NCBI GenBank assembly: GCA_029531755.1
Contig: CM055976.1
Coordinates: forward strand, 6,848,493-6,912,492
From: Holothuria leucospilota
Taxonomy: Eukaryota
Reading direction: 5' to 3'
Length of the DNA: 64,000 nt
Position numbers and translations under genes: made by a program. The notes under the pieces are model-generated. The model did not search any database, was not told the origin of the DNA, and was given only the letters and a program-made list of their open reading frames with translations. This document shows positions 685 through 48,904 of this stretch, one piece after another (the first letter of the stretch is position 1; every line of letters begins with the position of its first letter).

Positions 685-2974
685 ATTGCTGTCGTGCACG
701 GCAAAACTTCTACGTCACGGCAAACGTCTGTCACCATAACATTTGCGTTTAAGTGCCTGACATTTCGCTGTTTTTCATTAGATTTGGCTGAAATTCAGTA
801 GAGATGTTAGCAAAAGTGGTATCTGTATGCTGCGACTCTTTTCGATTAATTTGGCTGCTATTTGACCTCGGGAGGGGGCTTTGTTTGAAAACGTAAAATT
901 CCCTACTTGTCTTTCAGTTTTGCACCAATCTTGATAATATGTTTCATATAGATAGTTCAATTTGTGCTGAACAAAAGTTAAATTTTTTTTTCGTTTCTGC
1001 AATCATTAAAGGCATGAAAACATCACTTTTTGAAACAAATTCTGGCGAAGTCCGCATGTTCCGGAATACGTCGAGAATCCCAGTTGTTATCATTTGAGAG
1101 ACTGCAACGAAACCAAGTACAAACGTATACTGAACATATATAAATGTACAGGACGTCTCGTGCTTAATCGTGTGGAAGTGTTTACGCAAAGTGCAGTGTA
1201 TCGACTTTTGAATACCGTACGTGGGCTACCCCACTATGTCAGACTATGTTTGCTCAGCTCTTTGCTTTCCAAACCAGGGATATGACATGAATAAGGAATA
1301 TACCGTACATCCTACTATGGAGGCGTTACGTCATGAACATGTGGTGCTGATCTCATTCAGGCGTTTTAATAATAGACTAGCTAAATTGGTTGGATCACGG
1401 TTAGGCCTACTCGAAAAGAAATACCGGACGTTTGCAAGTTATGCAAGTTCTTGCGAATATGTGGCCTTGTGCGAAACATAGGCTAGTGGTATAAGCTAGG
1501 TGGCAGAAACAAGTATTCAACTTAGCCTGATGTCTGAATGGTTTTAGGAGTTTGGCTTAAAGTTTAAAGAGAATATATCCAGTCGCCTCAAGTTTCAAGT
1601 TATTTGTAAACATTACCTTAATCTTTCAAATTTTCTTGTATCTGCTTTACAAACATTCTTCTTAACATTTCTGGACAAAAAATTTTTTAGTATGAAAGGT
1701 AAACAAATGACTTATCTTCCTTAATAGTAAATTAGTTTATATTTGTCGCATGACACTCGGGTACACTATTTCAAGTTACTAGGGTGAATGTTGTCTAGGA
1801 AATGTCGTACGAGGAAAGAGGAACCCACCCCTTTCTTTTAAACAAAGAACATGGCACGTTGATTGAAAATACAAAGCTTCATATGGTTTAAGCTTAACGG
1901 TTGTGCTAACATTCCAAAAACAATTTTCGGTTTGAAAAAGAAAACGTGCTTTTTGAAGGCCTGTGCCATAAGTCAGTCTCGGAGCCTGCAGGAATTGTGC
2001 AGCTCAGGCTTCTAGTCAAGCGGGCCAAGGGGGCGAATCCCTCTTTGAAATTTGTTCGCCCCCTAGCAAGTTTTCAAGTTGCCATTGGCTTAATGGCATT
2101 TGTACACATTTGGCCCCCTTAAAAATTTTTTAGCCCCTGGAAGCCATTTTGCCCCCATTCAGTACCTTGTCAAGCTACAAGCCTGGTGCAGTCACATGGG
2201 CATCGACACTGCAGGAACCGCCCCAGTCTTGTTTTCCGTTGCCGAAAGCCCCACCAAGTTGTTAAGGGGAAGCCATGGGGGATGATATTTCAATAGCCTT
2301 AGACTTAGTATAAGTGTGCATATTTTCCCAACGCTCTCTACGAACTGTAGTTACCCTCCGGCCTGTTGGGACACATTCACGGGTCCTAAAAGCGATCGAC
2401 GATTTATATACCTGGTAGATCCCAATCATAAAAATGTTATGCAGTAAAATAATGTTGTAGGGGAAAACGGGACTAAAGAGTACTCAGAATTCGAGGCGCG
2501 TAAAGAATTTAATTTGGAAATTATCCCTTTATATTGAGCAATTGAGCAGTTTTGGTTTTTCCAAATCATAGCCTGGCAACACTCATTGGAACTTCTGTCC
2601 CTGGACAAGTTCAAGGAATATCTCTGGGGCAAAATATCCCTTTTAAGACCTTTAACCATTTGTAAAATTTCTTTATCGGAAGTTACTATCTGGGTCTAAT
2701 TATGGAAAACAAATGAGGTCTACAAAGCAGCACACTCATAAATATTCATTATTTGTATACTAACATCTGTGCAGTATATAAAGTTAACTTTGTGTACCAG
2801 ATTTAGTCTTTCAGAGACTTCAGGAGTTCAATACATATTTCATTGCATTTATATTTATCTCTTTGTTTTCTAACGTACGTATGATCAACATGAGTTACAG
2901 TCCCATCCAAAATATTGACTGCAGACTTTTAGGTCAACAGGAAAAGCTGAGCTTCGGCAACATTGTTGCGCTTG

Positions 2975-5045
2975 TTTTGGTTACTATGAAAGAGAAACCT
3001 ATGCGTTCATGATGGTGTGTGTGTGTGTATTAAAGTATGTGTGTTTGTGACACTTTGCTTATTAACACAATATCTCAAGAAGGGAAAGTGTGACAGTTCT
3101 CAAAACTTGGTACATAGATGCTGAATATTAAGAGAAACAAACCTATTGTCTTTATGTAGGCCAAAGCACATCTGGGGTCAAACTCTGAAAAACTTGTTAA
3201 CACAATATCTCCAGGTAGAAAGCTTGGATAAATTTCATACGTAGTTTATGGATGCATTATGGTCTGAGGAAGAATCCTGTTGTTTTTGGTGGAAGTCAAG
3301 GTCATTTGAAGTCACAAGGGTCAAACCCTGAAAACCTTGTTAACATGATATCTCAAGGGAGGAAGCTTGGATAAATGTCATACTTAGGATGTAGATGCCT
3401 TATGGTGAACAGAAGACTCTGTTGTTTTTGTTGGATGTCAAAGGTCATCTGAGGTCACTGGGGTTAAGCTCTCAAATTGTTTTTTTTAACACAATATCTT
3501 GTGGTGGGAAGCTTGGATAAATTTCATACTTAGTATGTAGATGTGTTATGGTCAGGGGAAGAACCATATGGTTTTTTGGTGGAGGTCAAAGGTATAAGGT
3601 CCCTTGGGGGTCAAACTCTGAAAACCTTGTTAACATGATATCTCAAGGAAAGAAGTTTTACTAAATTTCATACTAGATGCCTTATGGTGAGAGCAAGAAC
3701 TTTTGTTACTTTTATACTTAGTATGTAGATGTGTTATGGAGGAAGAACCCTATTGTCTTTGGTAGTTGTCAAAGGTCATATAAGGTCACCAGGGCCAAAC
3801 CCTGACAAATTTTAACATGATATCACAAGGTAGGAAGCTTGGATAAATGTCATACTTAGGATGTAAGTGCCATGTGGTATGAGGGAGAATCCTGTCATTT
3901 TGGTGGAGGTCAAAGGTCATCTGGGGTCACCAGGGGTCAAACCCTGAAAACCTTGTTTAACATGATATGTCAAGATAGGAAGCTTGGCTGAATTTCATAC
4001 CTAATATGTAGATACCTTATGGTGAGAGGAAGAACACTTTGTTATTAGTGGGGGTCAAGGGTCATCTGGGGTCACCAAGTGTCAATCCCTGAAAAACCTT
4101 TTGAACATGATTTCTCAAGTAAGGCAGCTTGGATAAATTTCATACTTAGCATGTAGATGCTTTATGATAAAAGGAAAAACCCTGTTGTTTTTTGTGGAGG
4201 TCAAAGGTCATTTTGGGTCACTGGGATCAAACTCTGTAAACCTTGTTAACATGGTATCTCCAGATAAGAAGCTTGGATAAATTCATTATTTAGTATGTAG
4301 GCATGCTTTGGTGACATTTAAAACCCTATTGTTTTGATGGAGGTCAAAGGTCATCTGGGGTCAAAACCTGAAAACCATTTTAACAGCAAGGTAGGAAGCT
4401 TGGATAGATTTCGTATTTGGTATTTGGTTGCCTTATTGTCAGAGGAAAGACCCAGTTGTTTTGATGGGGGTCAGAAGTCATCTGGGTCACCAGTGGTCAA
4501 ACTCCTGAAAACTTTTTTAACACGATGTCTCAGGATAGGAAGCTTAACTAAATTCCATACTCTACATCTAGATGCCATATGGTTAGAGGGAAAACTCTAT
4601 TGTGTGATAGTGGAGATCAAAGGTCATCTGGGGTCACCAGATGTCACAAAGCAAAATTTCCCAAGAATTCCCAATATCGTTATCTGACTCACTGGAGGTC
4701 AAAAAGGAAAATTTCCCAAGGAATTCCCAAGATCTTTATCTGGGGTCATTGGAATTCAAAAAGCAAAATTTCCCAAGGATTCCCAAGATCATCATGTGGG
4801 GTCACCACAGGTCCAAAAGCAAAATTTATGAAGAGTTCCCAAGATTGTCATCTGGAGTCACCAGAAGTCAAAATGCAAATTTCCCAAGAATTCCCAACAT
4901 CAAATATGAACACAAAACTATTTTTCCACATGTTAAGATAGCATTTGACCAGTGACTGAAAGAAATGCGACAACATGACATTATTTGGAATAAAACATAT
5001 ATCATGGAAACCTCAATGCATTTTGCTATCTGGTTAGTGAAAAAA
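2975..5045 (+). mobile_element. Composite satellite-carrying element, family 1, copy A. It has a head (gaaagagaaacctrtgc...catgatg), a (TG)n tract, about 12 diverged units of a ~145-bp tandem repeat (core GGTCAAAGGTCATCTGGGGTCAC), a tail carrying ~60-bp subrepeats (aaagcaaaatttcccaagaattcccaagatc), and a conserved terminus (...gacaacatgacattatttggaataaaacatat...gcatt...ctggtt).
   Basis: The same head/array/tail architecture recurs at 35510-37770 and 50945-52890. The periodicity is visible from the recurring ggtcaaaggtcat / cttggataaatttcatacttagtatgtagatg motifs. Confidence 0.8.
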
Positions 5046-6218: not shown

Positions 6219-6474
6219 TCTTGAATGTGGACAGGAATTCTTCTTTACTTAACACTATAGTGGTACTAGTTGATACAGAACACATTATTTCCTCTGCTGT
6301 CCCATTCTGTCAGCTTCTTCAAGATGTGATGAATGTACAAGAAGCATCTGACTGGAAGAAGAATGTGAACATCACCAACAAGTACCGTAGTTTGAGATGT
6401 AACATCCAGAGTGTTGACACATACAGTAGTCAGTATCAAACAGTCATGCGAATCATTGGAAAAGAAGCAGTGGA
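6219..6474 (+). CDS. PARP4: Exon at the boundary of the PARP regulatory and catalytic domains (...VLVDTEHIISSAVPFCQLLQDVMNVQEASDWKKNVNITNKYRSLRCNIQSVDTYSSQYQTVMRIIGKEAV|E). It starts in phase 1, so a small upstream exon appears to be missing from my model.
   Basis: Acceptor ttattgtAG at 6216-6218 and donor TGGA|GTGAGT at 6475. The frame is continuous into the next exon (ga+a=E). The segment NKYRSLRCNIQ...RIIGKE is compatible with the PARP1 region preceding the HGS motif. Confidence 0.55.
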
Positions 6475-7747
6475 GTGAGTTATTAGTTTGGTGTCTTTAT
6501 GAGTTTATTCTTTAAGGAAAAGATTATTCTTATTGGTTTTCTGGTAGCATGTAAGTATAGAGGAAAATAGCGAAACATTTTTGCAGTTTAATGAGTTGGA
6601 TGTGTCTCACATTTAACACTGGTAAGTTTGAGATGACAAAAGTCTTTCTTCATAGAGGCCTTTTTAGCCTATTGTTTTTAATCAAGATACTTTTTTGAAA
6701 GTTAGTTCAAAAGGTTCTTAAAAACAGAAGGCTGTCATGTTCAAATGTTTGAATGGTCAAACCAACATTCAGACATTTAAATGGCACCTTTTTTAACCAA
6801 ACGCTTTTAACAGCAGACTTACTCATTAAAGACAAAATAAATTCAGCATCATTTTTTGACCATGTTTTTGTTTTGATATCCTTTCATTCAAATGACGTTT
6901 ATTTGCCAAATTAATAAGTGAATAAAGCTGCAAATATATAACTGTCACAAATGGGTAAATTTTTATTCACAGCACACCTCCGGGCTACAGTACTTTATCG
7001 CCCATACAAAATAGGAAGCAGCCACCATATGCAGGCAGTTGTGGGCCCATGGATATAAATGATGTTAAAGTCATGTTTAACTGCACACTAAAATGCTCAG
7101 TTGAGAAAACCCATGCAGGACTGCTAAAATATTAAGTTACGCATTGTGTGTCAAAAACATCACAAGGTCATTACTGTGTACTAGCTTGTTGACAAGATTC
7201 TAGTCTGTCATTGGCTGAAACATTTTGGTCCATGAAAGTAATGAAGATGAAAAGTTGGCATTAATTAACCCAGATAGTTGTGTTTGCATTGCCGCAAATT
7301 TCAATCAGTTTTTACAGTTTCTTTAGTGAAAACATAGAAAACTTTTGTACATGAAGCTATATGCACCATTGTTTCGTATGTATGAAATTTTCATGATAGT
7401 CGGTCGATTGCCTGTGCCTGTGGGGGTAAGATTATATAACAGTTGCTTTGGGTATACAGGAGAACCACAGTGTACAAGTGAAATTGACACACAGGATAAC
7501 AAGAGTTGCAGAACTTGCCATACCTAGGCTATGCTGCACACTCTGCCACATGCATTGAGAATGCCAAAATTAGACACCTGAATTGGCATAAATATTGTTA
7601 CAAAAAGCCTCTTTCAGCATATACTTTGGTATAGAAAATGTGTATATTTTATGGCAGATTGTTTAAACATGATTGACTTAGATTTATAAAACAATAAAGT
7701 GTGTTATCTGTGGTTTTATCATTTGTAGGATCTTACAAATCATGCAC

Positions 7748-7790
7748 AGGGTGTGTGTGTGTGTGTGTGTGCATGTATGTGTGTCTAGGG
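7748..7790. repeat. (TG)n microsatellite in intron 2. Nearby at 8349-8392 lie a T25 homopolymer and a G-run.
   Basis: Direct reading. Confidence 0.9.
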
Positions 7791-8584
7791 AAGGGGGAAG
7801 AGTTAGTTATATATAAAGTGTGTATGCCCACAGTTGATCAAGTCTGACTGATTTTCAAAGGATGCTAGGAAGGGCAGAGGGGAGGGGGAGGCTTGAAAAA
7901 AAATGTGGTTTGATGTTTTGCACCCTTGTGAATACGATGAAACTTGGATAACTCTACATGGTATTCAGAAAACCTAACTTCTGTACATGTTAACTAGCTG
8001 TATAGTTGCACTTATTCTTAAAACGATATTTGGAGAGAATTGGGAGTTTTAGGCAGGTTTTATTTTGATCCTTTGCCAGGTAATAGGTGAGTGTTTCATT
8101 TTATAGCAGTCTGTGGTTTTCGCAAGTGGCCTAAACTGAAAAATATTCCAAACAGGAATTGAAACATTTAATTGGAAGCCGTTCAGTGTGAAGTTGCAAT
8201 AGATAAGCCATTGCAGTCTTCTCCCTCATTTATGGCTGCAGTATCATGGTAACATAGTCCCCTCAAGGCCTGACATATTGTACTGTATTCTTACTAGTTT
8301 TGGACTGCATGTTGTGGGTGAAAGTGTTTATCATCTTTATGTGTGTGGGTTTTTTTTTTTTTTTTTTTTTTTGGGGGGGGGTGGCCTTCTTAAGAGTCTT
8401 ATTGTTTATGCTCATTTGTTGTTGTTTGACACTTTGTCTAATTCTTTTGTCTGCTCTTTGTAGTTTTTACTTTGTATGGCTGTTCATTGTTTCTGTGTAT
8501 GTGTATGGGGGCCTTGTGGAAGATAAGCTTTGGTTTTAACACTGAGTTACTGTGGATTAAAAAACTTAAGTAACATAAAATAAT

Positions 8585-8835
8585 AGTCTGTGCTGTGGCC
8601 AAGTGGATAAGGGCAGTGGCATTTGAAGAGATGAAGCGTCATAACCGGAAGGTTCAAGTTTGGATACCTGGCCAGGGCAAAGGTAAGGTGGGTTTTCATC
8701 CAAAAGCAATTAATCTATGGTTTTCCCATTGGCCTTTAAAAAGAAACCAAATTTGATTTAAGTTGTTGACTCGATAAGCCACCCGACGTGAAGTTGTAAT
8801 TCATAAGCCATGTAGGCTTCTCTCACATTCGTGGT
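8585..8835 (+). mobile_element. tRNA-derived SINE-like element, forward orientation. Its head (GGCCAAGTGGATAAGGGCAGTGGCATTTGAAG...GGTTCAAGTTTGGATACCTGGCC) carries a T-arm-like box.
   Basis: The tRNA-like box-B remnant GGTTCAAGT is present. A ~75-80% identical copy lies in inverted orientation at 12600-12830, and a partial copy at 8100-8260. Confidence 0.6.
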
Positions 8836-8967
8836 CGCTTAGCGCTTTAAAACAACTGCCCTTAAAGGCCTGTATCATTTATTTTATTGAAATAAAATAC
8901 TTTGATATTTTTTATTTTATCCATTTTTAAAGGATGTGCTGATATCCTTGTTTTCAATCATTTACAG

Positions 8968-9105
8968 AAGTAGCAGAATACAAGTCACAAATGTTTATTC
9001 TCTGACAAGACCTTTGGAAGATAGCATCTTTGCACCTAAAGGGAGAAAAGTTACATCACTTGTGCATGCTACCAGGCCTACATCACTTCTTGGAATTCTG
9101 TCACG
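8968..9105 (+). CDS. PARP4: PARP catalytic domain exon (SSRIQVTNVYSLTRPLEDSIFAPKGRKVTSLVHATRPTSLLGILSr). It contains the His of the catalytic H-Y-E triad (HAT in place of the HGS motif).
   Basis: Acceptor catttacAG (8965-8967) and donor CACG|GTAAAT (9106). It aligns with PARP1 [29 protein letters not shown]. Phase is consistent with both neighbouring exons. Confidence 0.8.
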
Positions 9106-9803
9106 GTAAATTTTAGCCAAGGGAAAATATACCCTTGAAAATCTTAAGCTTTTTATTGCTGTAATGAATGTTTGTATTTTGGCTATGATGTTTTGGTAAA
9201 TTTGAAAATATTCACCAGTGCCTCTGGTCTTTAGGTTATGAGAGTGTAGTGGACCATTGGCTTTAAGGTGTTGGACTTGTGATCCCAGGATTGCCATTTT
9301 GACTGCTTGGGTCATTATGTCATATCCTTGGGTAAGATGCTTTCTCTCAATTGCATCTCCCCACCCAGGAGTTAAATGGTTAACTGTGAGGTGAATTGTC
9401 ATCAGGTACACTGTTTAGTCTGCTGCCACACTAGAGGGGTTACCTCTGGGAGGATTTACCATTGGGCAGGGGTAATATATATGAAGTCCTTTGAGGCTTA
9501 TCGACAGTGTAAAGTGCTATAAAAACAAATTATCTATTACAGTGATTATTTCAGTTCTTAGTAGGTTTAGTGCCTGTCTTGTTTGGGCATTTGCATGTGC
9601 AATGGATAAATTTACATCTCTCTTTGCCTTTCAGATGCAGTTACATATTACTGATTGAAGTGTGCAAAATATCTTTAATGTAAAAATGTTTCATTACATA
9701 TAGTCTGTAGCAAGTTGGGTACATTTTCTTGCGCAGCTGGTTGCGATGTTTTACTAAGTAGTAATGTGTAATGGTAAAACATGAAAGTATGATTTCATTT
9801 CAG

Positions 9804-9902
9804 AGGTCTTCTCCCACCAAAGATAGTTCAAGAGGATGTTGGTATCGAGAGAAGAGATTATGGCTTTTTGGGCCAAGGAATATATTTTGGTGATGACATA
9901 AG
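9804..9902 (+). CDS. PARP4: PARP catalytic domain exon ((R)GLLPPKIVQEDVGIERRDYGFLGQGIYFGDDIr). It contains the GxGIYF motif with the catalytic Tyr.
   Basis: Acceptor ttcatttcAG (9801-9803) and donor ATAAG|GTGAGT (9903). It aligns with PARP1 [27 protein letters not shown]. Confidence 0.85.
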
Positions 9903-10594
9903 GTGAGTAAGAAACCAAATGGACAACTGCTTTTATCAGATGTTGTTTTTGAATTTGCTGATATTAAACTCATGTTCATGACAGAGAAATTGAGGAGTGA
10001 TGACTTACGTTCCAGATTTGAAATAATTTATTTGATGCACTTAGTTGTCAGTTTATATCTGTTAGTGGTATCATGTGATATGTCTCAAAGTTTTGAGTTC
10101 CATTGGTACAGACTGATCACTCAAAATTACTGGAAAATATATATCTCATAGTAAATTTGTATGTTGGTATGGAGTTATAATGGTTAGAGTTGGTGATAAC
10201 CTTGTAACAATGGGTAGTAGGCTAGTGTATGAACTTGAGTAGTTACTATTTATGATGTATAGTATTATCATTATTGCAAATACCCAATCAATTGATAGTT
10301 TAAGTCAGAAAGGGATATGTGTGGTCTTTTAAAAAGTATTCAAATTAGGATTGTATACTATTACTTATTCCAAAACATCAGAGTACTCAAATCAAAGGAG
10401 CTGTAATGAATTTATTTATGAATGGTGTACTGTGTGACCTTTAAATGGTAAGTCATGATGATCTTTGGATCTCCTGAAGAATGCTGGGAAAGCTGTGAGA
10501 AGTAAGTGTCTATTCTTCCAGTCTATATCTTTCAAGACAGGAAGATTAAAAAAAGGGGGTCATAAGTCAAATCAATTGTTTCCCTCATTGGCAG

Positions 10595-10778
10595 ATCCAA
10601 CATGCACTTCACTGAACCAAACGGTTGCACTAAGACTCGTTTCCTCCTTACGTGTGAAGTCATTGTGGGGAAGCAGTATAAAACCTGCCAACACCAACCA
10701 GACTTGGTCAATCCTCCACCAGGATATGACAGTGTCCTAGGTGTAAAGAACTCTGATGGAAACCATTCAATGTTCAAG
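10595..10778 (+). CDS. PARP4: PARP catalytic domain exon ((R)SNMHFTEPNGCTKTRFLLTCEVIVGKQYKTCQHQPDLVNPPPGYDSVLGVKNSDGNHSMFK). It contains the catalytic Glu, in LLTCEVIVG.
   Basis: Acceptor cctcattggcAG (10593-94) and donor TTCAAG|GTATGT (10779). It aligns with PARP1 [56 protein letters not shown]. Confidence 0.85.
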
Positions 10779-11538
10779 GTATGTTTACTAGATTGTATAA
10801 TGGAATATATCTAGACATGTTACGTAGTAATGATTTTGAAAACAGCTGGGCTTTTAACTTGTACCACATTTATGATTCTGTGTCTTTTTTATAAAGCACT
10901 TTTCATACACCTGCTAGGTACAACTGTCAGTCTGTTAGCACTGAGATTATATGACTCTATCACTCAGTAGATGTTGAACCTAAGCTTTCACTTATCAGCA
11001 TTTATTACATTGTATTGTAGTCAGAAGTGCACTCCAACAGCCAACTCCACATTAAGTGTCATCAGCAGAGAGACTGTTCACCCCCAAGTCCTTTGGGGAA
11101 TTTTCCCATTCTTTTCCATTTTTTTCACCTGCCTTCAGTTGCTGACCACGCTGAAATCAGTCATCTTATTGATCCACTCCTCACCAGCTAGTCATGGTCG
11201 AACCTACAGAACTGCCTCATCTCAAGGGTAGACACTGCAGGGTTTCCATCTTCAGCCACTGTAAGCTGTCAGAGCTAATATGTTACTCTGGCTTCACACC
11301 AAAAATCTTCCTTAACATTTCATCTTCACTTCTCTCAAGTTGTAATGCATCATTTATTCCAGGAGGCCAACATTCACTGGTATAAAGCATGGCACACTTG
11401 ACACTGGTTTTGCAGACGGACGTGTACTACAAGTGTGAGATAATAGACATTTGCAGGTCAAAACATGTTTAAAATTAAGTTGGTAAGTCAACATTTTGGG
11501 TTTCCCCATTTTAGAGTAATCTTTCTTGGACATTACAG

Positions 11539-11692
11539 CACAATGAATACACCATCTATGATGTTGGTCAGCAGCGACTGAGCTACCTGATAGAGTTTGT
11601 CCAAGTGAATGAGACACCTGCCATTTACCAGCCAGAGTTCTCCACAGAAGATGTAGAAGAGCCCACTGTGGAAGAAAAGAATAAAGAGATAG
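11539..11692 (+). CDS. PARP4: C-terminal end of the PARP catalytic domain plus a linker (HNEYTIYDVGQQRLSYLIEFVQVNETPAIYQPEFSTEDVEEPTVEEKNKEIg).
   Basis: Acceptor ggacattacAG (11536-38) and donor GATAG|GTACAG (11693). It aligns with PARP1 [22 protein letters not shown]. The exon ends in phase 1, which is completed by the next exon (g+at=D). Confidence 0.8.
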
Positions 11693-12599
11693 GTACAGAC
11701 AGGCTTGTTTTATTGTATGTTTTATTTTTCTAAATAACCTACAAATATGGGACCTATTGAACAGATAAGCCAAGAAGTATTACTTCAAGCTGTACTGACA
11801 AATTGCATCCAACATTTCAGTGCAAAGAAAATATTAGTATAATGTTCTGCTAGTACAGATCAGTCCAAATACATCATTCTTTCCCAACATTTAATATTGT
11901 GGAAGTGGTACATACAGTATACTACATGTACGATGTAAGTGAAAAGCTATCGAGTTTGCCTGTAGCTACATCAAACTTGACAAGATCAGGGTCTGAAAGC
12001 CATATTCCCTCATCAGGTACTCTATATATATATTCCAGGTTGATCATGAATGCCTTAATGATGGTACATGTTTTTGAGCATGTGTGCACCTTTTTTTTTA
12101 ATATGCCATTATCTTTGTAGAAAAGATGGCACAAAGATTTGTTGAAATTTTTTAGTTCCCCTATTGTAGCAATGAGCCTGAATCATAGTTGTTGTAATGA
12201 ACTCATCAAAGTGTCACCACATTTCAAGTTGTGCATTCTGGTTTAAAAATAGGAGTGGCCAATTTTTTAAGTTTGTAATTTATTAAACTAGGTATTAAAT
12301 TCACAGTTTTGAAGCTTTTAGTGTTTTACATTGAGGTGTATGAGTGCAGAATGAATTACACCTGTTGCCAACCCTATGACATTATTCTTAACTTACATCA
12401 AGATAATCACCAGTTTTGTTGGATTGAGATTCATCTATTGGGGCAAACAAATAAGTATATTCCCAGGACAACAAGATTTGATATTGTTGATTACTTGTTT
12501 ACAATTTGCTGCTTTCATATGGATATACTGTTATACTTATAGTACTTGTTTGGCCTTGAAAGGCAGTTGTCTCAAGACACTAAGCAACCACAAATATGA

Positions 12600-12830
12600 A
12601 GGATGACTATGGCTTATAAATTACAACTTCATGTCAGGTGGGCTGCAGCCAACTCAACAATTTAGATCAAAGTTGGTGTCTGTTCAAAGGCTGGGTCAGA
12701 TGGGAGAACCATAGATTGCTCTTGGATTAAAACCCATCTTACTTTGAACCCTGCACCCCCTGGCTTCCTAACTTCATTGCTTCAAATGCCACTGTGTTTA
12801 TCCACTGGATCACAGCACTGGTTATTATTA
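12600..12830 (-). mobile_element. Inverted copy of the same SINE-like element.
   Basis: The reverse complement of 12780-12830 (ccagtgctgtgatccagtggataaacacagtggcatttgaag) matches 8590-8630. The downstream body is similar along its length. Confidence 0.6.
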
Positions 12831-13063
12831 TTACTGTATATATGAAGGCTTAGCTTCCCTTTAAATGTACAAATGCATATCATATGCATAGCTTAAACTG
12901 CAATGACATATGCCTGTAACACAATAGAATATTTTTCCTTAATAAGTCATAGTAGCAAAGGGTTATTGACACTTACATTGCCTACGGTATGATGTACCTG
13001 ATTAGTTTAAATAGCTTATTTTTTTTAAAATGTGTAAATGTCTCACACTGTGGTTCAATTTAG

Positions 13064-13194
13064 ATGTATCCGATGTGATGGATGTAAGTGACCCTCTTGA
13101 TAAGGTCACCCCAGGTTTGCAAACAAGTGGAGGTCAACCTGTCCTTCTTGAGAGGGTTTCAGTCAAGGCTAAGATGATGGACCTTGTAGCTCAG
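13064..13194 (+). CDS. PARP4: Exon at the start of the VIT domain ((D)VSDVMDVSDPLDKVTPGLQTSGGQPVLLERVSVKAKMMDLVAQ).
   Basis: Acceptor ttcaatttAG (13061-63) and donor CTCAG|GTGACC (13195). The pattern PL..V.V.A.V is typical of the N-terminal end of VIT domains in ITIH, VWA5A and PARP4 proteins. Confidence 0.7.
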
Positions 13195-14215
13195 GTGACC
13201 AGTTTTATTTATTACCCATTGTACTTTATCTATGACCAGTCTTTCTTATTGTCTGCTGTATTTTATATTCTTCTCGTTTTGTTTTAGACACTTTATGTGA
13301 AAAAAGAATTTTGATCTTTTTGAAAGCTTTCCATTATAGGTGTTTTCAGTATGCTGCCAAAGGAAGGATGACCATTTGTTTTCAAAATTATATTGAAAAT
13401 ATAATCCAAAATACCGAAACAGTACCATTGCACCTTACAACAGATACATTCTATTTCCATGATGAATACATTACACTGAATCTTAAAGAGAAGCTCCAGC
13501 CCAAAATTATTTTTGATAAATATCTGAAAAGAAGAATCAGCAATGTGGTGTAATTTGTGTTCGGTTGCTGTGTGCAGTGATTGAAATACTTAGTAGTCCA
13601 AGTAATTACGCCCTAAAAAAAAAGCTTCACTTAAAGTAAGAAGATTCTAGAGGGATGTCATAGCCCCATATAAGTTTTTATTTTTCAATTTTCTGGTATG
13701 TTCTTCTGGTATGTTTTTTATTTAGATTGCAAGGCTACTGAAATAGTCTGTAAAATTCTGATGTTTCATTCTTTCACATTACAAGTGCATGAGATTAAAA
13801 AACTTGATTGGTGAATATGTGAGACAAAGTTTAATGTCATCCATCAAGATAAAGCTATTACACTGCTACTTAGTTACACTGATTACTTACTGCACTTTAT
13901 GTGCAAAGTAGTAACTTCAATTGCTGACATCTCATATCAGCATACAGATTTGGATTTGTAATTTACTGGGATGCTAAGATTAACTTCCTTTTTCACATGT
14001 CCAAAAAAAAAAAAAAAACTTAAAAATTAACTTTGGCTTAGACCATGCAGTGGTAAAGTATGACTGGAACACAAGATAGAGAGGAACTTACTGACATGGA
14101 AATACATGAATAAACACAGAATGACTTTTTAGGAAGCAATATTTTTCACTTTAGTTTGGAATTACATTCTCAATGCAGTTCAATCTTCATACTCTTTTAT
14201 TTTCTTCATTATCAG

Positions 14216-14434
14216 GTCACTGTCTTTCAGAGGTATCGCAATACTAATACCAAACCCATTGAGGCCAAGTACGTCTTTCCATTGGATGATACTGCTGCAG
14301 TGTGTGGCTTTGAAGCTTTCATTGGAGATAAGCACATCGTGGGAGAAGTTAAGGAGAAGGAGACAGCTCACAAGGAGTATAGAGAGGCAGTTAGTCAGGG
14401 ACACGGTGCATACTTGATGGATGAAGAATCAGCG
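14216..14434 (+). CDS. PARP4: VIT domain core exon (VTVFQRYRNTNTKPIEAKYVFPLDDTAAVCGFEAFIGDKHIVGEVKEKETAHKEYREAVSQGHGAYLMDEESA).
   Basis: Acceptor cattatcAG (14213-15) and donor TCAGCG|GTACAC (14435). It carries the signature VIT motifs EA.Y.FPL...AAV.GF...I..K.I.G.VKEKE.A...Y..AV..G.GA.L. Confidence 0.85.
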
Positions 14435-15688
14435 GTACACAATATCAACATCTTTCATTTATTTTACAGGGTTTCAACACAGTGTGGAAAACTGGAAAAG
14501 TCTGGATACTTTGATAGTCTTCAGTGTCCTTGAATTTGGGGTTTTAGGTCTAGAAATATTGAAATATGGTTTTATGAACTGAAACCCCGACACTTGATTG
14601 TTTCATTTATCCACACAGTGTGTAGAACAAGTACAAGTTTTCTTCCAGACATATTTCATTAACCTTTGGTCCTAAAAGTGGCCTTTGTGGTCATAGAAGA
14701 AACCTTGAAAAGTCATGAACTTGAGCACCTCAAAAGTGTTGGAACCTGCTTTCATGATAAGTAATTAGGACTTGATTGTCTTTGAAAAAGTAGTTCAGTA
14801 GCTAGGAAAGTCTTTGCAAAGTCTGACAAGAATTTTTGATATTGGCAGTAAGGAGTTTTTTAACTTTAATGGCATATCAAGTGTTTGATATTATGTTTTT
14901 TTGTCAATCAGTGTCAAATGTTTGGATTGAAAAAAGACCTGTTGCTGTGATTATTGAGCGGTCTGTGCAAAGCAAGACTATAGTGCATAAATAAAGGGAA
15001 ATACTGCATTTATTTTACAGAAGATTTTCATATTAAACTAATATTAATAGATACAGAATGATTAACAATTCAAGAAAAAAGGCTCTCACAGAAAGTTAAT
15101 CCATTATTTGTTGCACAAAAGTAATATGTTCACCCAAACTTTCAAAAATTCAAACGATGCAACATCTATTACTCTTGTAATGCATAATATTTTGTGGAGA
15201 TTAAGCTGTCACTAGAATTTATTGGTGAGACAGAGTGGTTTAACAATGATTAAGGTATTTTCTTTGTATGCCATGTTGCCATGTATGCCATTTTAAATGC
15301 AATATTTCCTTTTAATAACTGGATTCTAAATTCACCATAAATTATTTCTAGAATTTTCTTTTTTGAGGTAAAGTTCATTTCCTTTAATGCAGTAATTTCT
15401 GTGTCTTTCACATTCATATTGTGTTTGTTTGTACTAATGATTTAAGTGTAATTGTTATCACTGGATATGCTTCAATACACTTCTTTGTACTTGAAGACAT
15501 TTTCCTGTGTCTGATGTGTAGGTTACACAAAACATTGAACAGATAATTAAAATGGTAAACCATTGTACCTGGAACCTTCCATTGAATTGGAAATCTTTTT
15601 CAAAGGTTGTGTGTAACTGTTTAGAAAACTTTAATACTGAAACAGTAATACCTTGCATATTGTTATAATCTTTGACCTTTCTTGGCAG

Positions 15689-15891
15689 GACGTCTTCACA
15701 GTTAGTGTTGGGAATCTACCGCCTTCTACAGAAGTAATAATCAAGATCATCTATGTGGTTGAATTAAGTTTGGATGATGATCATATAGTTTTTCATCTTC
15801 CTGGGAGTCTGGCATCATGGAGGAAGGAAGGAGCTTTGGCAGAAGAAACTCAAAATGTGACATCAACTGTTTCAACTGGAGATGAAAAGAT
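15689..15891 (+). CDS. PARP4: VIT domain exon (DVFTVSVGNLPPSTEVIIKIIYVVELSLDDDHIVFHLPGSLASWRKEGALAEETQNVTSTVSTGDEKi).
   Basis: Acceptor ctttcttggcAG (15686-88) and donor AAAGAT|GTAATT (15892). It carries the motifs F.V.VGNL.P...V.I...YV.EL that are characteristic of VIT domains. Confidence 0.8.
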
Positions 15892-16771
15892 GTAATTACA
15901 TATCAGCAATTTAGTTGTAAAGGACAAACAGTCCCTTCTAGGAACAATAACATGTAACTGTATTTTTTATCTAAAGAAAAATAAAGCCACTCTAAGGGAC
16001 TGTAAAATGATGTACAGTAATTACAATGTATCTTTCATTTAACTGAAAATACCCTCTCTACCTTCTTAATACAATTCAGTGTAGTCTACTCATTTGTTCT
16101 GCTCTTCTGTATATTTTTAATTACCTGTGGCTTTGATTTCCATGCTGACAATGACCAAAATATTCCAAACTCATGCACAGATCCAGAGGGGAAATTTTAC
16201 AGCCTCAGCCCCCCCCCCCCGCCCCTTTTTTTTTGCATCACTTTCTTTTTTGAGACTGTTCAAAAGCTGCACTTCAAATTTATATATTACTGAATATTAG
16301 TTTGATTGTTAGATGCCAGGAAATACCATTTAACAGTGTCTAATTTAAATTTTTCCCAGAAGCTCCCCCCCCAATCATTTGACTGTTTTAGCTTTGAACT
16401 TTGCCCTCATGGAATTAACCCACCCCCCCCCCTGTAAAATTTTTGATCTGCCCCTGTAACTGATATGTCAAACTTAATTTAAAGTCACTGGGTTCATTCT
16501 TTGAAGACCCACACATACAATTACATCCTGCTTTCGGTGTGCACTATGAAAATAAGTGATAAGCTTCTTTGTAAATGATGATTTCATGACCACGGGAAAA
16601 CTCCTTAGGTTGTCTTGCAGACTTGCAACATATGGTAATGTTCTTGTCTATGCATGAAGCACATTGGAGCACAGGGTGTGTGTTTTGATGGAACCTGTAT
16701 CCCAGTGCATTATAGTATCACTCTTTTCATTTGTCTATATTACCAAGTTGATTTTTTTTTAACTTTTACAG

Positions 16772-16853
16772 AAAGTTTGAGATGTCATTATCAATGGAGA
16801 TGCCATTTGATATCCAGACTATAAAGTGTTCCACTCATGATATCAAAATTAAA
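16772..16853 (+). CDS. PARP4: Short exon after the VIT core ((I)KFEMSLSMEMPFDIQTIKCSTHDIKIK).
   Basis: Acceptor aacttttacAG (16769-71) and donor TTAAA|GTAAGT (16854). Phase is compatible with both flanking exons and the frame is open. Confidence 0.55.
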
Positions 16854-17436
16854 GTAAGTCAATGCAGATGTCATAACATTTATTCATGAAAAGAAAAAGT
16901 AAGCAGCGGTGCCACCAGATTTCAAAAGTTGAAGGAGGGAGTAAGGCACATAGAAATTTAGGGGACATAACTTTATGGGTATTTGCATTAATCTTGTAGA
17001 CTATACACTTTTGTTACAAGTGTAGATGGGAGAGCAAGTGGGGGGTAACAGTCTTTGACAGGTGGTGGGGCAAATGGTTTTGCTGTGCTCCCCTCCCCCC
17101 TCCCACTGCCCCCGGTGCTAGTGAATATGAAGTAATAAAAAGTATGATAAGAGGAGTAAAATATTATTTCATGTCAATGACCATAACATAATTTTTATTT
17201 TATCATCTTAATAATATACATCACAGCTTTACATTTGTAATGAGCAGTGAAACTTAATGGTATATGGTCACTTGTTTAGTGGTCAGAGGAGAAAACTTAC
17301 TTTTCATGTGCCACATGCATTGAATGGAAAATTTTTTAAGATATTCTGTTTATAAAGTTTGGTAAACAACCCCCATATCCACCACCCTACCTTCACTAAG
17401 TGAAAACAACATCTGTGTGTATCTTTTGCATTTTAG

Positions 17437-17577
17437 AGGACTGCTGCGAAGGCATGCATTACTTTGGCAGAGGGGGAAGATTGTCTCAAGGAAGGCTTTC
17501 ATCTTTCTGTGAAACTCCATAAAATTCACCAACCACACATGTGGGTTGAGCAGAACCCTAATGACAAGGACAGTCAG
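17437..17577 (+). CDS. PARP4: Inter-domain exon (RTAAKACITLAEGEDCLKEGFHLSVKLHKIHQPHMWVEQNPNDKDSQ).
   Basis: Acceptor ttgcattttAG (17434-36) and donor GTCAG|GTACTT (17578). The exon runs phase 0 to phase 0. The segment P.MWVE..P resembles the linker of VIT-vWA proteins. Confidence 0.65.
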
Positions 17578-18126
17578 GTACTTCGACTTATTTTCACATA
17601 TTATCAAACAAAGTTTTGCTGAATGAATTATATGTAAGCTTTTTGTTTCTTGAATGATTTACTCTTGTAGTTAATCTATAGTGATCTCTACAAAAAATTC
17701 CCTAGCATTGCAAGTGTTCAGTGTCAGACACACAAGACTATGGTAAACTAACTTTTCCATTCTCCAGGCACATTATAACACTGACAGTGGCAAAGATGAG
17801 AACAATTGACCCATCTGTCACTCATGTAGACTTTTGGTTTCTCAGCTGCAGATTTCTCAATTTTTAGCAAGCCTTTCTTAGATACCTTTGTATTTCCCCA
17901 GTGTTTTTACAATTTGAATCACTTTACAACATATGACAAGATAATTATCATGTGTGCTTTAATTTTGCTTGAAGTTTTTTTTCAGTTTCCTTTTCAGTTT
18001 CTAAAATCCTGTGCAACCAGTGCTTTTCATGATGGTTTAGTCTTTTCTGTTTATATTATGGTGTTGTACAAGTTAGTTGATAAGGTGAGCAGATTATTGT
18101 ATTCACTGTTACTTTTTTCTCATCAG

Positions 18127-18313
18127 GCTTGCATGCTGACCTTTTATCCAGAATTTGAAGTCCCTCAACTCAAGAAACCAGATGTCACTGTGATATTGGA
18201 CTGTTCCAATTCTATGAAGGGGGAAAGCTTTGAGCATGCAAAGAAAGTTTGTTACATGATTGCCTCTCTAATGCCAAAAAACTACAGGTTTAATCTAGTT
18301 AAGTTTGGTACAA
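18127..18313 (+). CDS. PARP4: N-terminal vWA domain exon (ACMLTFYPEFEVPQLKKPDVTVILDCSNSMKGESFEHAKKVCYMIASLMPKNYRFNLVKFGTn). Its MIDAS-like motif is DCSNS, not the canonical DxSxS.
   Basis: Acceptor ttctcatcAG (18124-26) and donor ACAA|GTAAGT (18314). It carries the vWA hallmarks V..DCSNSM.G and FN...FG. Confidence 0.8.
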
Positions 18314-19122
18314 GTAAGTCAAAGGGTCTTTTACTCTCAGAAATATTCTTGTGGCAATTTAAGAGGATTGTAAATGAAAGAATATTCTTTCATCACATAC
18401 CCTTTAAACCTGTGCATCGATTGCATTGTCAGTGCGGCTTAACATTTTGTTAGAATAAAGGTTATGACTCTAAAAGCTACCTGCATACTTCATTTAAGTA
18501 TTTCAAGATTACAAAACTACAAAAGATGTTCAATTAGTTTGCCTGTATGACATCACTGATTTCCCATAATGCAGTTCATTGTTGTGAAGTGAATATTTTA
18601 TTTGAAACTGTGTAACTTTCAAATGCAACATGCTATTGAGATGGGATTTACACCAGTAAAGATTGAAGAAGATACCTGATCTTTTGAAATTCTTGCATTT
18701 TGTCTCTGGAATATCGGTTTAAACTGCAAATTTGTAGGCCTTCAGGCAGAATTTGTTTGAAAAGGGTGTTCTCCTGTTTCCAGCATATAAACCTGCTATT
18801 CAGTTGCTTTGAATGGTCTTTCAGGGTTCCAACAGCCTGCAAAAGTGAGAGTTATGTTTTAACTTTCCATGCCTGGCAAAGACCTGGAATTTTGTAAAAT
18901 GAAAGAAATCATGGGTTTTTGAAGAATTTCACTTTTTTCTTTACTTTTTCTTCTTTGAACTATGTGCAGATTTTAAGAGTTTTCAGTTTGGTTTAGATGC
19001 ATGGACAAGATCATGGAGTTCTTTTTGTTTTGTCATGAAAAGGTCGTAGAACTTTGCAAGTTGTGGAAAAGTCTTCTTTGTTCCAATCTAAAAAAAATTC
19101 TTCATGCTTAATTCGTTTGCAG

Positions 19123-19381
19123 ATTTCAAAGAGTTCTACCCTGCCTCTCGTCTGTCCTCCAAGATTGATTTTGATGAGCTAAAAGACTTTTTAGCTGGTG
19201 CATCTCCTGCAGAGGGCAACACTGATGTTTGGCGCCCGCTTCATTCACACTACCTTCTTGAGGGTGAAAATTTGCGCAATGTGTTTATCATCTCTGATGG
19301 GCATATCAATAATGAGACAGAAACTTTGAAGAGCATAGCAAAAAATTCTTCTCACACTCGAATTTTTACTTTTGGAGTGAG
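19123..19381 (+). CDS. PARP4: vWA domain exon ((N)FKEFYPASRLSSKIDFDELKDFLAGASPAEGNTDVWRPLHSHYLLEGENLRNVFIISDGHINNETETLKSIAKNSSHTRIFTFGVs).
   Basis: Acceptor cgtttgcAG (19120-22). The donor is assigned to GTGAG|GTTAGA (19382), because only this phase keeps the next exon open. The motifs GGT, IF..SDG and R.FTFG match the vWA domain. Confidence 0.75.
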
Positions 19382-19699
19382 GTTAGAGAAGCTTACGTTT
19401 TCATGGAGAGGTGCAATATATTTGCAGCCCTGGGGGGCATGAGATGGGAAGTGGTGTGATTGGGGGATAACTAACTTAGTGCATTCATATGCAGCATTCA
19501 CATCATAATATTGTATGAAAAACAATCAGAAAACCAAGTTTGAATTTCTTTTTTGTCTCATTGCTGAAGACCAAAAAGTTTTGAAATCTTCCTGCTTTGA
19601 ATGTTAAGTGTGTGACATTAGAGACTGACAAAATGGTTGTCATACTGTAAATAATTTGTTCTTAGCATTCTTAGCATTCTTTTGTTTTGTATTTCCTAG

Positions 19700-19799
19700 C
19701 ACAACTTGCAACAAACATATGTTGAAAATAATGGCTCGCAGTGGTGCAGGATCCTTTGAATTCTTTGACGGAAAAACAAAGTCAGCCTGGCAAAGAAAA
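19700..19799 (+). CDS. PARP4: C-terminal vWA domain exon ((S)TTCNKHMLKIMARSGAGSFEFFDGKTKSAWQRK).
   Basis: Acceptor tatttcctAG (19697-99) and donor AGAAAA|GTAAGT (19800). It resembles the VWA5A segment SLIKGIARASGGTSEFI. Confidence 0.7.
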
Positions 19800-20064
19800 G
19801 TAAGTAAAGTCATCATTGAGCCCCTTGCAGGGATTTTATCATTTATCTTGCATGCTTTTCTATGAGTTAATGCTTTTGAAACCTGTTGGGAATCAGTGAA
19901 TAGACTGTACTTGTCTAGTAACTTGCACTTGTAGCAGTGTTACATATTAAAACTGTGTCTGTATAATTTGGGACAGAAAAAATGGCTTAATTTATTATGC
20001 AACTATTCTTATTATGATATAGCTACAGTCTTCATTAAATAGTTAAATTATTCCTTTACTATAG

Positions 20065-20235
20065 GTGAAGAATCAACTACGGCGAGCAGGACAGCCATCG
20101 GTGAACTCTTTGAGTGTAAAGTGGCACCAGTTTGACAATTATGCTCCCAAGCCCCGTCAGGCCCCTCGTCACTTGGGAGCTCTTTTCAGTGGATCACGTC
20201 TGGTAGTGTTTGGTATTGTGCCCTATTGTACATCG
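20065..20235 (+). CDS. PARP4: Post-vWA exon (VKNQLRRAGQPSVNSLSVKWHQFDNYAPKPRQAPRHLGALFSGSRLVVFGIVPYCTS).
   Basis: Acceptor cctttactatAG (20062-64) and donor CATCG|GTACGT (20236). The exon runs phase 0 to phase 0. It resembles the VWA5A region ...SLSW.LP....L.P......RGQRL..Y. Confidence 0.7.
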
Positions 20236-20705
20236 GTACGTTACCCCTATATTCCTGTTTAGTACTATTAGACTAGGTCTATAGTATTGGCAATAAGCAA
20301 ACAGTAAACATTTTTTGTCAGCAAATCCAAATCAGTAATAAAATTTGGCTATATTGGTCTGCTCACCAAGTTGGAAAGTGTTTGGTAACTTTGTTTACTG
20401 ATAATCCTATCTTTTGTAAGTTTGCAATTGATTTTTAGGGCTCAAAATTCTTTGAATGATGGCCTGTTTGTGCACAAAGTATCATTTTTATAAGGCTTTT
20501 TGTAGAGCTCTTTGTGAATTGTAAGGACTGTTTTTCTTTTCACAGTATTTTTAATTGAAATTTTAAGGAATGAACTTCATAATTTCATACTTGTCTAGTA
20601 GTTAATATGCTTGATAGGTCAGTTGAAAGACTGTGGCAGATTCCATATTGTATTTTATAGAGATCACAACAAGTCACAAGAGACAGTTTCATTTTCTCTT
20701 CCCAG

Positions 20706-20786
20706 GCAACTTTAACAGCTGTTATTGACGGTCAAGAGATATCAACTGTTGTGTCCACTAGTGACTTATGTATCACAAAAGGACTG
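20706..20786 (+). CDS. PARP4: Short in-frame exon (ATLTAVIDGQEISTVVSTSDLCITKGL).
   Basis: Acceptor ttctcttcccAG (20703-05) and donor GGACTG|GTAAGG (20787). 81 bp, phase 0. Confidence 0.5.
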
Positions 20787-22609: not shown

Positions 22610-22792
22610 ACATTACATCGTCTGACAGCTCGGGCTCTTATTCGGGACTGGGAAGATGGCATGCTAGATATGGACCGCATAGAGGAAGAGATAGCTAAGG
22701 AGAAAGAGAAGCAAGCAATTATTTCTCTGAGCAGACAATACAGCATTGTTACTAGTCTTACAAGCTTTGTTGCAATCGAAAAGAGAGAAAAG
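22610..22792 (+). CDS. PARP4: Exon encoding TLHRLTARALIRDWEDGMLDMDRIEEEIAKEKEKQAIISLSRQYSIVTSLTSFVAIEKREK, which is the conserved C-terminal block of the ITIH/VWA5A/PARP4 family.
   Basis: Acceptor tattttgagcAG (22607-09) and donor GAAAAG|GTATGT (22793). The motifs LHRLAA..LI and S..TSFVA.E are conserved in VIT-vWA proteins. Confidence 0.7.
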
Positions 22793-23716: not shown

Positions 23717-23854
23717 CATGAAGTACAGAGGAAGTCCAACATGGAAGAGAAATTGAAGGAATTACTTCAGATGGAAGACGTTGATGTTTTACCTTACATG
23801 GATTGGCAACTCAGGCAGGAAATGACCATTGACTTTAATGATAAAGACAAATGG
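23717..23854 (+). CDS. Candidate exon (HEVQRKSNMEEKLKELLQMEDVDVLPYMDWQLRQEMTIDFNDKDKW). It has an open frame but a weak GTTTGT donor.
   Basis: Acceptor cactcatgacAG (23714-16). It is open in the phase predicted from the previous exon. The donor AATGG|GTTTGT is non-consensus. There is no homology support. Confidence 0.35.
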
Positions 23855-48870: not shown

Positions 48871-48904
48871 AGTGTGCAGTGGATGATGCATAGGTGTACT
48901 TTGT

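Follow-up and report, generated by a model that had tools for sequence, protein, structure and literature searches.

Probable non-autonomous Helentron-like elements (HINEs) carrying satellite-like arrays in a 64-kb window around PARP4 of the sea cucumber Holothuria leucospilota

We describe a family of repeats, called family 1 below, from a 64,000-nucleotide stretch of the Holothuria leucospilota genome (GenBank assembly GCA_029531755.1, contig CM055976.1, positions 6,848,493 to 6,912,492 of the forward strand; hereafter the window, numbered from its first letter) that also holds the gene PARP4. Three insertions in this window very probably represent one family of HINEs, that is, of non-autonomous Helentrons, and are kin in kind to DINE-1, pearl, DTC84 and Cg_HINE. 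All structural features that define the HINE class (PMC4067079, PMC7492417) were looked for and found in family 1. The full set is displayed by copy 2, the most intact of the three, which has a 5' subterminal inverted repeat (subTIR), an adjacent inverted repeat (IR), a 3' subTIR, a 3' hairpin, junctions in oligo-T and no coding function. A preliminary description of the window had proposed a mobile element of the Helitron/Helentron or pearl kind that disperses satellite DNA. The sharp boundaries of the copies, their unrelated flanks and the existence of two paralogous units without copy 2 bear out the mobile element with its satellite-like array. As to its kind, the Helentron (HINE) signature is complete, the 5' TC and the A^T target of canonical Helitrons are absent and the hairpin abuts the 3' end; the family is of the Helentron type rather than a canonical Helitron. 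It is a new family within a well-described class, in a taxon in which this class probably had no prior characterization; no description of HINE-like elements in sea cucumbers was found in the searchable literature. The three copies lie where they had first been placed, with ends now refined by three-way alignments:

2973-5035, plus strand: copy 1, 2063 bp, within a PARP4 intron
35511-37768, plus strand: copy 2, 2258 bp
50942-52886, plus strand: copy 3, 1945 bp including a nested insertion

From 5' to 3', each copy consists of a unique head of 44 bp (LFa), a (TG)n microsatellite of 30-60 bp, a segment of ~90 bp (LFb), an array of 145-bp monomers, a second array of 56-bp subrepeats and a unique tail of 136 bp (RF). 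The internal parts are as follows:

3015-3046, plus strand: (TG)n microsatellite of copy 1
3047-3138, plus strand: LFb of copy 1, a truncated and diverged first monomer (LFb profile)
3139-4646, plus strand: 145-bp array of copy 1, ~10 monomers, 75% mean pairwise identity
4623-4901, plus strand: 56-bp subrepeats of copy 1, 5 copies
4902-5035, plus strand: unique tail of copy 1, with 3' subTIR (5002-5012) and decayed hairpin (5015-5035)
35556-35613, plus strand: (TG)n microsatellite of copy 2
35614-35703, plus strand: LFb of copy 2, a truncated first monomer
35704-37490, plus strand: 145-bp array of copy 2, 12.3 monomers, recent local amplification
37489-37633, plus strand: 56-bp subrepeats of copy 2, 2.6 copies
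37634-37768, plus strand: unique tail of copy 2 (nhmmer E = 4.5e-48)
51008-51585, plus strand: nested foreign element of ~575 bp with terminal inverted repeats (TIRs), outside family 1, splitting the (TG)n of copy 3
51616-51703, plus strand: LFb of copy 3, a truncated first monomer
51704-52613, plus strand: 145-bp array of copy 3, ~6 monomers, 79% mean identity
52588-52750, plus strand: 54-56-bp subrepeats of copy 3, 3 copies
52751-52886, plus strand: unique tail of copy 3, with degenerate 3' subTIR (52852-52862) and hairpin (52859-52886)

The boundaries of these copies are sharp. Aligning heads and tails, as the preliminary description had advised, defined the termini: pairwise identity between copies amounts to 80-96% in the head, 78-84% in the segment after the microsatellite and 86-90% in the tail (80-82% and 86% for the head and tail of copy 1 against the others), and falls to ~40-49%, the alignment background, in the 300 bp beyond either end. 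Profiles built from all three heads and from all three tails were searched with nhmmer and returned exactly three matches each in the 64 kb, the E values being 3e-17 to 4e-16 (44-bp head) and 3e-48 to 3e-45 (tail), so that the proposed unique head and conserved terminus of ~140 bp both stand, the latter at 136 bp. The head has the sequence TGTTTTTGGTTTCGATGAAAGAGAAACCTGTGCAGTCATGATGG and starts with TGTTTTTGGTTTCGAT... or TGTTTTTGGTTTCGATGAAAGAGAAACC...; the head motif reported at first is real, and the alignments move the start of the head ~18 nt further upstream.

Between these ends, a monomer search counted ~10, 12 and 6 units in copies 1, 2 and 3, rather than the 7-13 first estimated, and Tandem Repeats Finder (TRF) delimited arrays with a period of 143-145 bp at 3174-4363, 35704-37490 (12.3 copies, 89% matches) and 51694-52587. 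The window contains 14 occurrences of the 22-nt core GGTCAAAGGTCATYTGGGGTCA, shuffled sequence none. Since the LFb profile matches monomers at profile positions 18-97, LFb is itself a truncated and diverged first monomer. The subrepeats of the tail, previously given as ~60 bp, are present with a unit of 54-56 bp according to TRF (4623-4901, 5 copies; 37489-37633, 2.6 copies; 52590-52751, 3 copies). The first 25-27 nt of the 56-bp unit equal the monomer core GTCATCTGGGGTCACC.G.GGTCAAA, and the remainder, AGCAAAATTTCCCAAGAATTCCCAAGATC, is new. No coding capacity was detected in the elements: their longest open reading frames (ORFs; 93-129 aa) all lie within repeats and gave no Pfam match at the curated cut-off, only two weak matches (E 0.016 and 0.055) with scores far under it. 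No tRNA and no Rfam family was detected in the elements either, and a short interspersed nuclear element (SINE) with a tRNA-derived head was rejected for want of a tRNA, an Rfam family or an A-rich tail.

The termini carry the following structures:

2979-2989, plus strand: 5' subTIR of copy 1, GGTTACTATGA, decayed, 9/11 identical to that of copies 2 and 3
5002-5012, plus strand: 3' subTIR of copy 1, TCATGGAAACC, 10/11 complementary to the 5' subTIR of copies 2 and 3
35518-35528, plus strand: 5' subTIR of copy 2, GGTTTCGATGA, 10/11 complementary to 37734-37744
35533-35538, plus strand: IR of copy 2, GAAACC, pairing with GGTTTC inside the 5' subTIR across a 9-nt loop
37734-37744, plus strand: 3' subTIR of copy 2, TCATCAAAACC
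37741-37768, plus strand: terminal 3' hairpin of copy 2, AACCTCAATGCA-tttt-TGCATTCTGGTT, arms of 12 nt, 83% complementary
50949-50959, plus strand: 5' subTIR of copy 3, GGTTTCGATGA, with the IR GAAACC at 50965-50970

The right-end subTIR of the family, TCATCRAAACC, is complementary to the left GGTTTCGATGA, and the hairpin (...TGCATTCTGGTT) closes the terminus. The GGTTTC/GAAACC pairing spans a loop of 9-10 nt in copies 2 and 3, while the inner stem of the copy 2 hairpin, AATGCA-TTTT-TGCATT, extends to arms of 12 nt. Folded as single-stranded DNA, the 5' structure of copy 2 reaches -4.1 kcal/mol (z = -2.0 against shuffles) and its 3' hairpin -7.0 kcal/mol (z = -2.9). Copy 3 retains the 5' structure (z = -3.0) with a weaker 3' hairpin, and copy 1 has lost both folds through substitution, its 5' stem being weakened by one substitution and its hairpin gone. 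Copy 2 is the youngest of the three and copy 1 the oldest full element.

These same termini speak to whether family 1 could be a non-autonomous canonical Helitron, an element with 5' TC, 3' CTRR and a hairpin ~11 nt short of the 3' end that inserts between A and T; the preliminary description had suggested looking for ends of this type. A CTGG that fits CTRR does lie 2 nt from the 3' boundary, after the hairpin, in all copies, and target-site duplications (TSDs) are missing, with terminal Ts and no flanking direct repeat at copies 1 and 3. The elements, however, begin with T(T)GTTTT(T)GG, thus with TG or TT (TGTTTT) in place of TC, and end with CTGGTT; the hairpin stem takes in the terminal GGTT instead of lying ~11 nt upstream; and the bases outside the ends of copies 1, 2 and 3 (T/C/T upstream, A/G/G downstream) leave no A^T target. 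Moreover, the subTIRs, the IR and the microsatellite of family 1 are absent from canonical Helitrons (PMC4067079). We consider a canonical Helitron highly improbable.

The insertion of copy 2 could be examined against paralogous sequence, because self-comparison identified 33700-47440 as a 4.1-kb unit repeated three times in tandem. Copy 2 is present in the first unit only, and the two units without it (39200-43307 and 43308-47440) identify it as an insertion. The 5' junction is ...GTTCAAGAAGGCTGTTTTT|ATTAGTGAAATT in the paralogues and ...GTTCAAGAGAGCTGTTTTT|GGTTTCGATGA in the filled copy; the 3' junction is ...AATCATTTTT|GAAATTAATAAAGG and ...CATTCTGGTT|GAAATTAATAAAGG, respectively. Homology to the paralogues thus ends inside ...GCTGTTTTT| on the 5' side and restarts at TT|GAAATTAATAAAGG on the 3' side, from which it follows that both joints lie in oligo-T runs and that nothing was duplicated. 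This empty-site test consists of the single paralogue comparison possible, which includes a deletion of 1.85 kb. As the paralogues carry on in the monomer register, the target of copy 2 was itself a monomer of an older, related element.

The three non-coding units span 33702-39199, 39200-43307 and 43308-47440, the second and third being 91% identical over 5.6 kb; the first has copy 2 in place of 1.85 kb, plus an insertion of 1 kb at 34131-35140. A coding capacity of the repeat unit was rejected, given that none of its ORFs contains a Pfam domain at the curated cut-off.

The junctions also bear on the idea of a cut-and-paste miniature inverted-repeat transposable element (MITE), which would have subterminal inverted repeats, a 2-bp TT (AA) TSD and a DDE transposase as its source of movement. 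The copies are indeed short and non-coding, with 11-nt inverted repeats near both ends and T at both boundaries, and this was how DTC84 and pearl were initially interpreted, AA being their putative TSD (PMC3879986). The inverted repeats are subterminal, however, and placed asymmetrically, at 7 nt from the 5' end but 24 nt from the 3' end; nor is either terminus (TGTTTTTGG... or ...CTGGTT) an inverted copy of the other. A 5' fold-back IR together with a 3' terminal hairpin are Helentron features, and elements of this architecture were reclassified as HINEs once their autonomous Helentron partners had been found (PMC4067079, PMC7492417). There is no duplication beyond the T-runs that were already present at two different sites; considering that the copy 2 junctions fall in two oligo-T runs lying 1.85 kb apart in the paralogues, the terminal Ts are target sequence rather than a duplication. 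A MITE is therefore improbable, if somewhat less so than a canonical Helitron.

A further possibility is that the arrays are immobile, being either local satellites or the products of segmental duplication at a single locus. Tandem and segmental duplications do abound in the window, the 4.1-kb triplication adjoining copy 2 among them, and full copies were seen in this window only. Against this, unrelated flanks surround ends with 80-96% identity, copy 2 is missing from the duplicated 4.1-kb units, and three other H. leucospilota chromosome-scale contigs have genes with monomers, in one case together with a head-to-monomer junction (described below). A classical satellite also fits poorly with arrays of only 6-12 monomers in fixed orientation that are always bounded by the same types of conserved unique head and tail. 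The preliminary description had named ordinary local satellites as the outcome that would undo its proposal; unrelated flanks and conserved ends contradict it in the window, and we regard the chance of it as close to negligible.

Several points nevertheless weigh against the assignment to the HINEs. No Rep/helicase ORF lies within the 64-kb window, and since no autonomous Helentron with matching ends was found there, mobilization in trans is something we infer only. Full-length copies are known from this window alone; the head pattern AAGAGAAACCTRTGCNNTCATGATG had zero matches in metagenome contigs, as did the family-specific monomer block AAGCTTGGATRAATTTCATAC in prokaryotic genome contigs and viral contigs. 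The subTIRs are just 11 nt long and have decayed in copy 1 and at the 3' end of copy 3. The microsatellite is a dinucleotide, (TG)n, where the usual one of HINEs is the tetranucleotide (GTCY)n, and the positions of the 5' subTIR (7 nt from the end) and of the hairpin (abutting the 3' end) are somewhat unlike those of mite HINEs. With T at both element ends, a TT target-site duplication is formally possible. Finally, the 1.85 kb between the two T-runs of the paralogues (equivalent to 40049-41901) are missing from the filled copy, so that the site of copy 2 is not a clean empty site and an insertion plus a deletion has to be assumed: either the insertion bridged the two T-runs and deleted the interval, or the deletion came afterwards.

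The metagenome search for the shared core GGTCAAAGGTCATYTGGGGTCA yielded two eukaryotic contigs, which have only a core of 23-33 nt or (GTCT)n in common with the window; both were rejected as copies of family 1, their similarity being limited to the core or the (GTCT)n microsatellite. On contig Ga0256838_1019043, most of a ~50-nt GT...AG intron in a eukaryotic SKI2-like helicase gene is taken up by a 33-nt stretch (753-785) with 94% identity to the monomer core. Contig JAAUXW010004109.1 carries (GTCT)n, GTGAC, a spacer and a GGTCA-rich repeat at its end (4060-4275), in the same modular order as the heads in the window and with no significant similarity past the microsatellite.

Comparison with described elements places family 1 among HINEs by architecture. 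The Cg_HINEs of the oyster (PMC7492417) share a left flank whose 5' subTIR (11-12 nt) is accompanied, at 1-12 nt, by a complementary IR and which also has a microsatellite; next come a variable spacer and tandem repeats of 140-180 bp in fixed orientation, and then a right flank with a 3' subTIR and a palindrome. They also insert at T-rich (TT) sites without TSD, often in non-coding parts of genes, and Cg_HINEs 10_13 and 11_12 have two consecutive arrays, as in family 1. They differ in that their microsatellite is mostly a GTCY tetranucleotide, their arrays average 3-5 monomers (6-12 in family 1), their right flank measures ~60 bp (136 bp in family 1) and their host is an oyster rather than an echinoderm. 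The DINE-1/HINE elements of Drosophila, mites and mosquitoes (PMC4067079) have subTIRs of ~13 nt and, at 3-22 nt from the 5' one, an IR, together with a microsatellite, central repeats and a short 3' stem-loop; they too are non-coding and insert at TT or oligo-T targets, with a variable number of terminal Ts. They show no sequence similarity to family 1, an autonomous partner has been identified for DINE-1/HINE families, and their hairpin sits 8-35 bp from the 3' end, unlike the hairpin at the very 3' end of family 1.

In pearl (CvA, CvE and CvG of Crassostrea virginica), DTC84 (Donax trunculus) and MgE (Mytilus), a flank, core repeats, a microsatellite and a second flank recur (PMC3879986). 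Their core repeats are ~156-160 bp long and number up to ~5, with array lengths that vary among copies, a first core repeat that is regularly truncated and a link to satellite DNAs (PMC3879986). They differ in their tetranucleotide microsatellites (ACGG and similar), in having first been read as MITEs with an AA TSD and, for DTC84, in an order of monomer variants that was not seen in family 1. The likeness to bivalve elements raised in the preliminary description accordingly stands as one of architecture, by analogy only: the host is a sea cucumber, and the suggested comparison with bivalve satellites gave no match for the monomer, either with Cg_HINE monomers in the readable part of the oyster data or in the accessible portions of the supplements to the C. 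gigas HINE, satellitome and Limnoperna papers. One unrelated C. gigas repeat contains TGACCTTTGACC. A single echinoderm family (1985) is listed as DINE-1-like or pearl-like in PMC4067079 and PMC3879986. Relative to described HINEs, family 1 stands apart in minor points only: its microsatellite is dinucleotide, its right flank and its arrays are long, its second array derives from the first, and its hairpin closes the terminus.

The arrays record different histories. Mean pairwise identity of monomers within an array is 75% in copy 1, 88% in copy 2 and 79% in copy 3, and the closest relatives of the copy 1 and copy 3 monomers are consensus-like monomers of copy 2 rather than their own neighbours, the pattern expected if a pre-formed array had been inserted and each unit had then decayed independently. 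In copy 2, monomers 1-4 are 94-97% identical to one another, the pairs 5/7 and 6/8 (a duplicated 290-bp dimer) 95-97% and the pair 9/10 94%. As the tails of copies 2 and 3 differ by 10%, these amplified blocks are younger than the insertion, and the array expanded where it had landed. Conservation across the monomer columns is lowest at the CpG sites CACCGGGG and ACACGATA, where copies 1 and 3, the old ones, have TG or CA; this decay suggests germ-line methylation of these genic repeats.

Onto the modular and terminal structure, the non-coding nature, the oligo-T insertion without duplication and the post-insertion array growth observed here, Helentron biology would add the following steps. 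An autonomous Helentron elsewhere in the genome would encode a Rep/helicase(/endonuclease) that recognizes the subTIRs and the 3' hairpin, as known for the class, and would thereby mobilize family 1 in trans. Copying or transfer may be of the rolling-circle type, with the 3' hairpin as terminator (by analogy with PMC4067079 and PMC7492417), followed by joining into oligo-T target sites with no duplication of the target. The array travels inside the element and, after insertion, changes in length, presumably by unequal exchange or replication slippage. The family thus seeds satellite-like arrays at dispersed, largely genic sites.

Evidence for dispersal beyond the window came from a translated query made of the array and tail of copy 2, which found only three protein matches among 5.8 billion clusters, all of them H. 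leucospilota gene models (PP4R3, SPICE1 and AASS) on three different chromosome-scale contigs. Their monomer-encoded stretches comprise 27-110 residues, 80-96% identical to copy 2. The SPICE1 model includes a peptide across the junction from head to first monomer (32/37 identical), and the AASS model has 36 monomer residues between residues that are adjacent in human AASS, within a conserved domain and at an exon junction. Monomer sequence also appears in a coelomocyte transcriptome of H. leucospilota (PMC7161275), where Unigene6841, Unigene1366 and Unigene1518 are reported, their repeat nature having gone unnoticed, as 'differentially expressed unigenes' strongly responsive to lipopolysaccharide (LPS) and where their quantitative PCR (qPCR) primers (Table 6) fall in the monomer. 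One primer matches the window exactly at 12 sites and others match with at most 2-3 mismatches at 4-18 sites each; the forward primer of Unigene1518 has no window match within 3 mismatches and resembles, by eye only, a monomer of the minus-strand relic listed below. None of four control primers taken from that table has a match in the window. These three unigenes are repeat transcripts rather than single genes, and the monomer is most likely both dispersed and transcribed in Holothuria.

The sense consensus monomer has the appearance of an exon: ...TTAGTGTGTAG|ATG is followed by 108 nt without a stop and by CTCAAG|GTAGGAAG (in short, AG|ATG ... CAAG|). All three features are intact in 5/12 monomers of copy 2 (35831-37244), and the same 36-codon unit stands in frame in the AASS, SPICE1 and PP4R3 models, which it explains either as genes with real cassette exons or as artefacts of the predictor. 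The monomer core, its best-conserved segment (0.95 against ~0.85 overall), moreover consists of four direct nuclear-receptor half-sites, AGGTCA-A-AGGTCA-TCTG-GGGTCA-CCGG-GGGTCA (e.g. 35725-35760). Perfect DR1 sites (AGGTCAAAGGTCA) number 18 in the window, all on the plus strand and 17 within the catalogued arrays of family 1 and of a second family introduced below; a full-text search for GGTCAAAGGTCA retrieved only papers on nuclear-receptor DR1. It is conceivable that the monomer serves as a ready-made cassette exon or regulatory module feeding host genes, although we think this rather unlikely. Gene-prediction artefacts and carry-over of intronic RNA are at least as likely as the cassette-exon reading, and chance alone could well leave one of six frames open over 108 nt. 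The exon-like features are lost in copies 1 and 3; their decay in these old copies weighs against selection at these loci.

As for the host gene, PARP4 lies on the plus strand: concatenated open frames match PARP4 proteins with E = 7e-168 and a best identity of 53%, the proteins returned all having <1000 residues and none coming from an echinoderm. The exons are only 50-53% identical to oyster, ark-clam and snail proteins and the matches obtained with the repeats all point to Holothuria, which disfavours a bivalve host; conserved exons extend from 6266 to 23965 (tblastn). Upstream, a frame at 49-273 matches the PARP regulatory domain (PARP_reg) with E = 1.6e-5 and 25.4 bits, against a Pfam cut-off of 26.8. 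Copy 1, lying between this exon and the PARP4 exon at 6266-6475, is therefore intronic, as all three copies had been thought to be. For copies 2 and 3, which lie 3' of the last conserved exon, an intronic position in the non-conserved part of PARP4 is plausible. The claim that all copies share the orientation of the gene stands for the three plus-strand copies, but such agreement is not significant, arising by chance in 1 in 4 cases, and the minus strand carries a related relic:

56039-56640, minus strand: degraded copy related to family 1, with (TG)n, an LFb-like segment and 3 monomers at 64-70% identity

No tail was detected for this relic. The monomer search additionally located old plus-strand relics at ~33.1, 35.2, 39.7 and 43.8 kb.

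A second family, family 2, occupies 28506-~29100 and 47520-48890. It is HINE-like, with 146-bp monomers, a palindromic head AGCTCAAC..GTTGAGCT and (GTCT)n. Architecture, orientation and the GGTCAAAGGTCATYTGGGGTCA...GGTCAAAC core are common to both families; family 2 differs in its palindromic head, its canonical (GTCT)n and a monomer that is unrelated to that of family 1 outside the core. Directly 3' of the family-2 array, or interrupting it, lies a MITE-like element of ~375 bp (48912-49288; TTAATTAGTGTTTGCAC... / ...GTGCAAACACTAATGTTAATT) with GGGTACCCGGGTACCCGACCG repeats inside. The foreign element nested in copy 3 has TIRs at 51023-51041 / 51555-51573 (89%) and 51052-51070 / 51530-51548 (95%), with inverted repeats GGGCGCCTATTGGGGACAC / GTATCCCCAGTAGGCGCCC; TATCCCC/GGGGATA repeats are numerous inside it, and the window has no second copy. 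A 67-bp tandem repeat, unrelated to the HINE monomers, lies downstream of the last conserved PARP4 exon at 24751-26389 (24.5 copies, 95% identity) and 26600-26865 (4 copies, 89%).

Taken as a whole, the locus illustrates how non-autonomous transposons of Helentron type carry satellite-like arrays into genes, where the arrays grow, and the pattern described for the HINEs of bivalves and insects would extend to sea cucumbers. The insertion of copy 2, associated with the loss of 1.85 kb between two oligo-T sites, provides a useful example of insertion plus deletion. To gene predictors the monomer has the look of an exon, and transcripts of it have been counted as immune-responsive 'genes'; masking this family therefore matters in these animals for annotation and for expression studies alike. 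If the cassette-exon or regulatory-module reading were true, this HINE family would not be inert and would supply exons, or stress-responsive modules bound by receptors, to genes such as PARP4.

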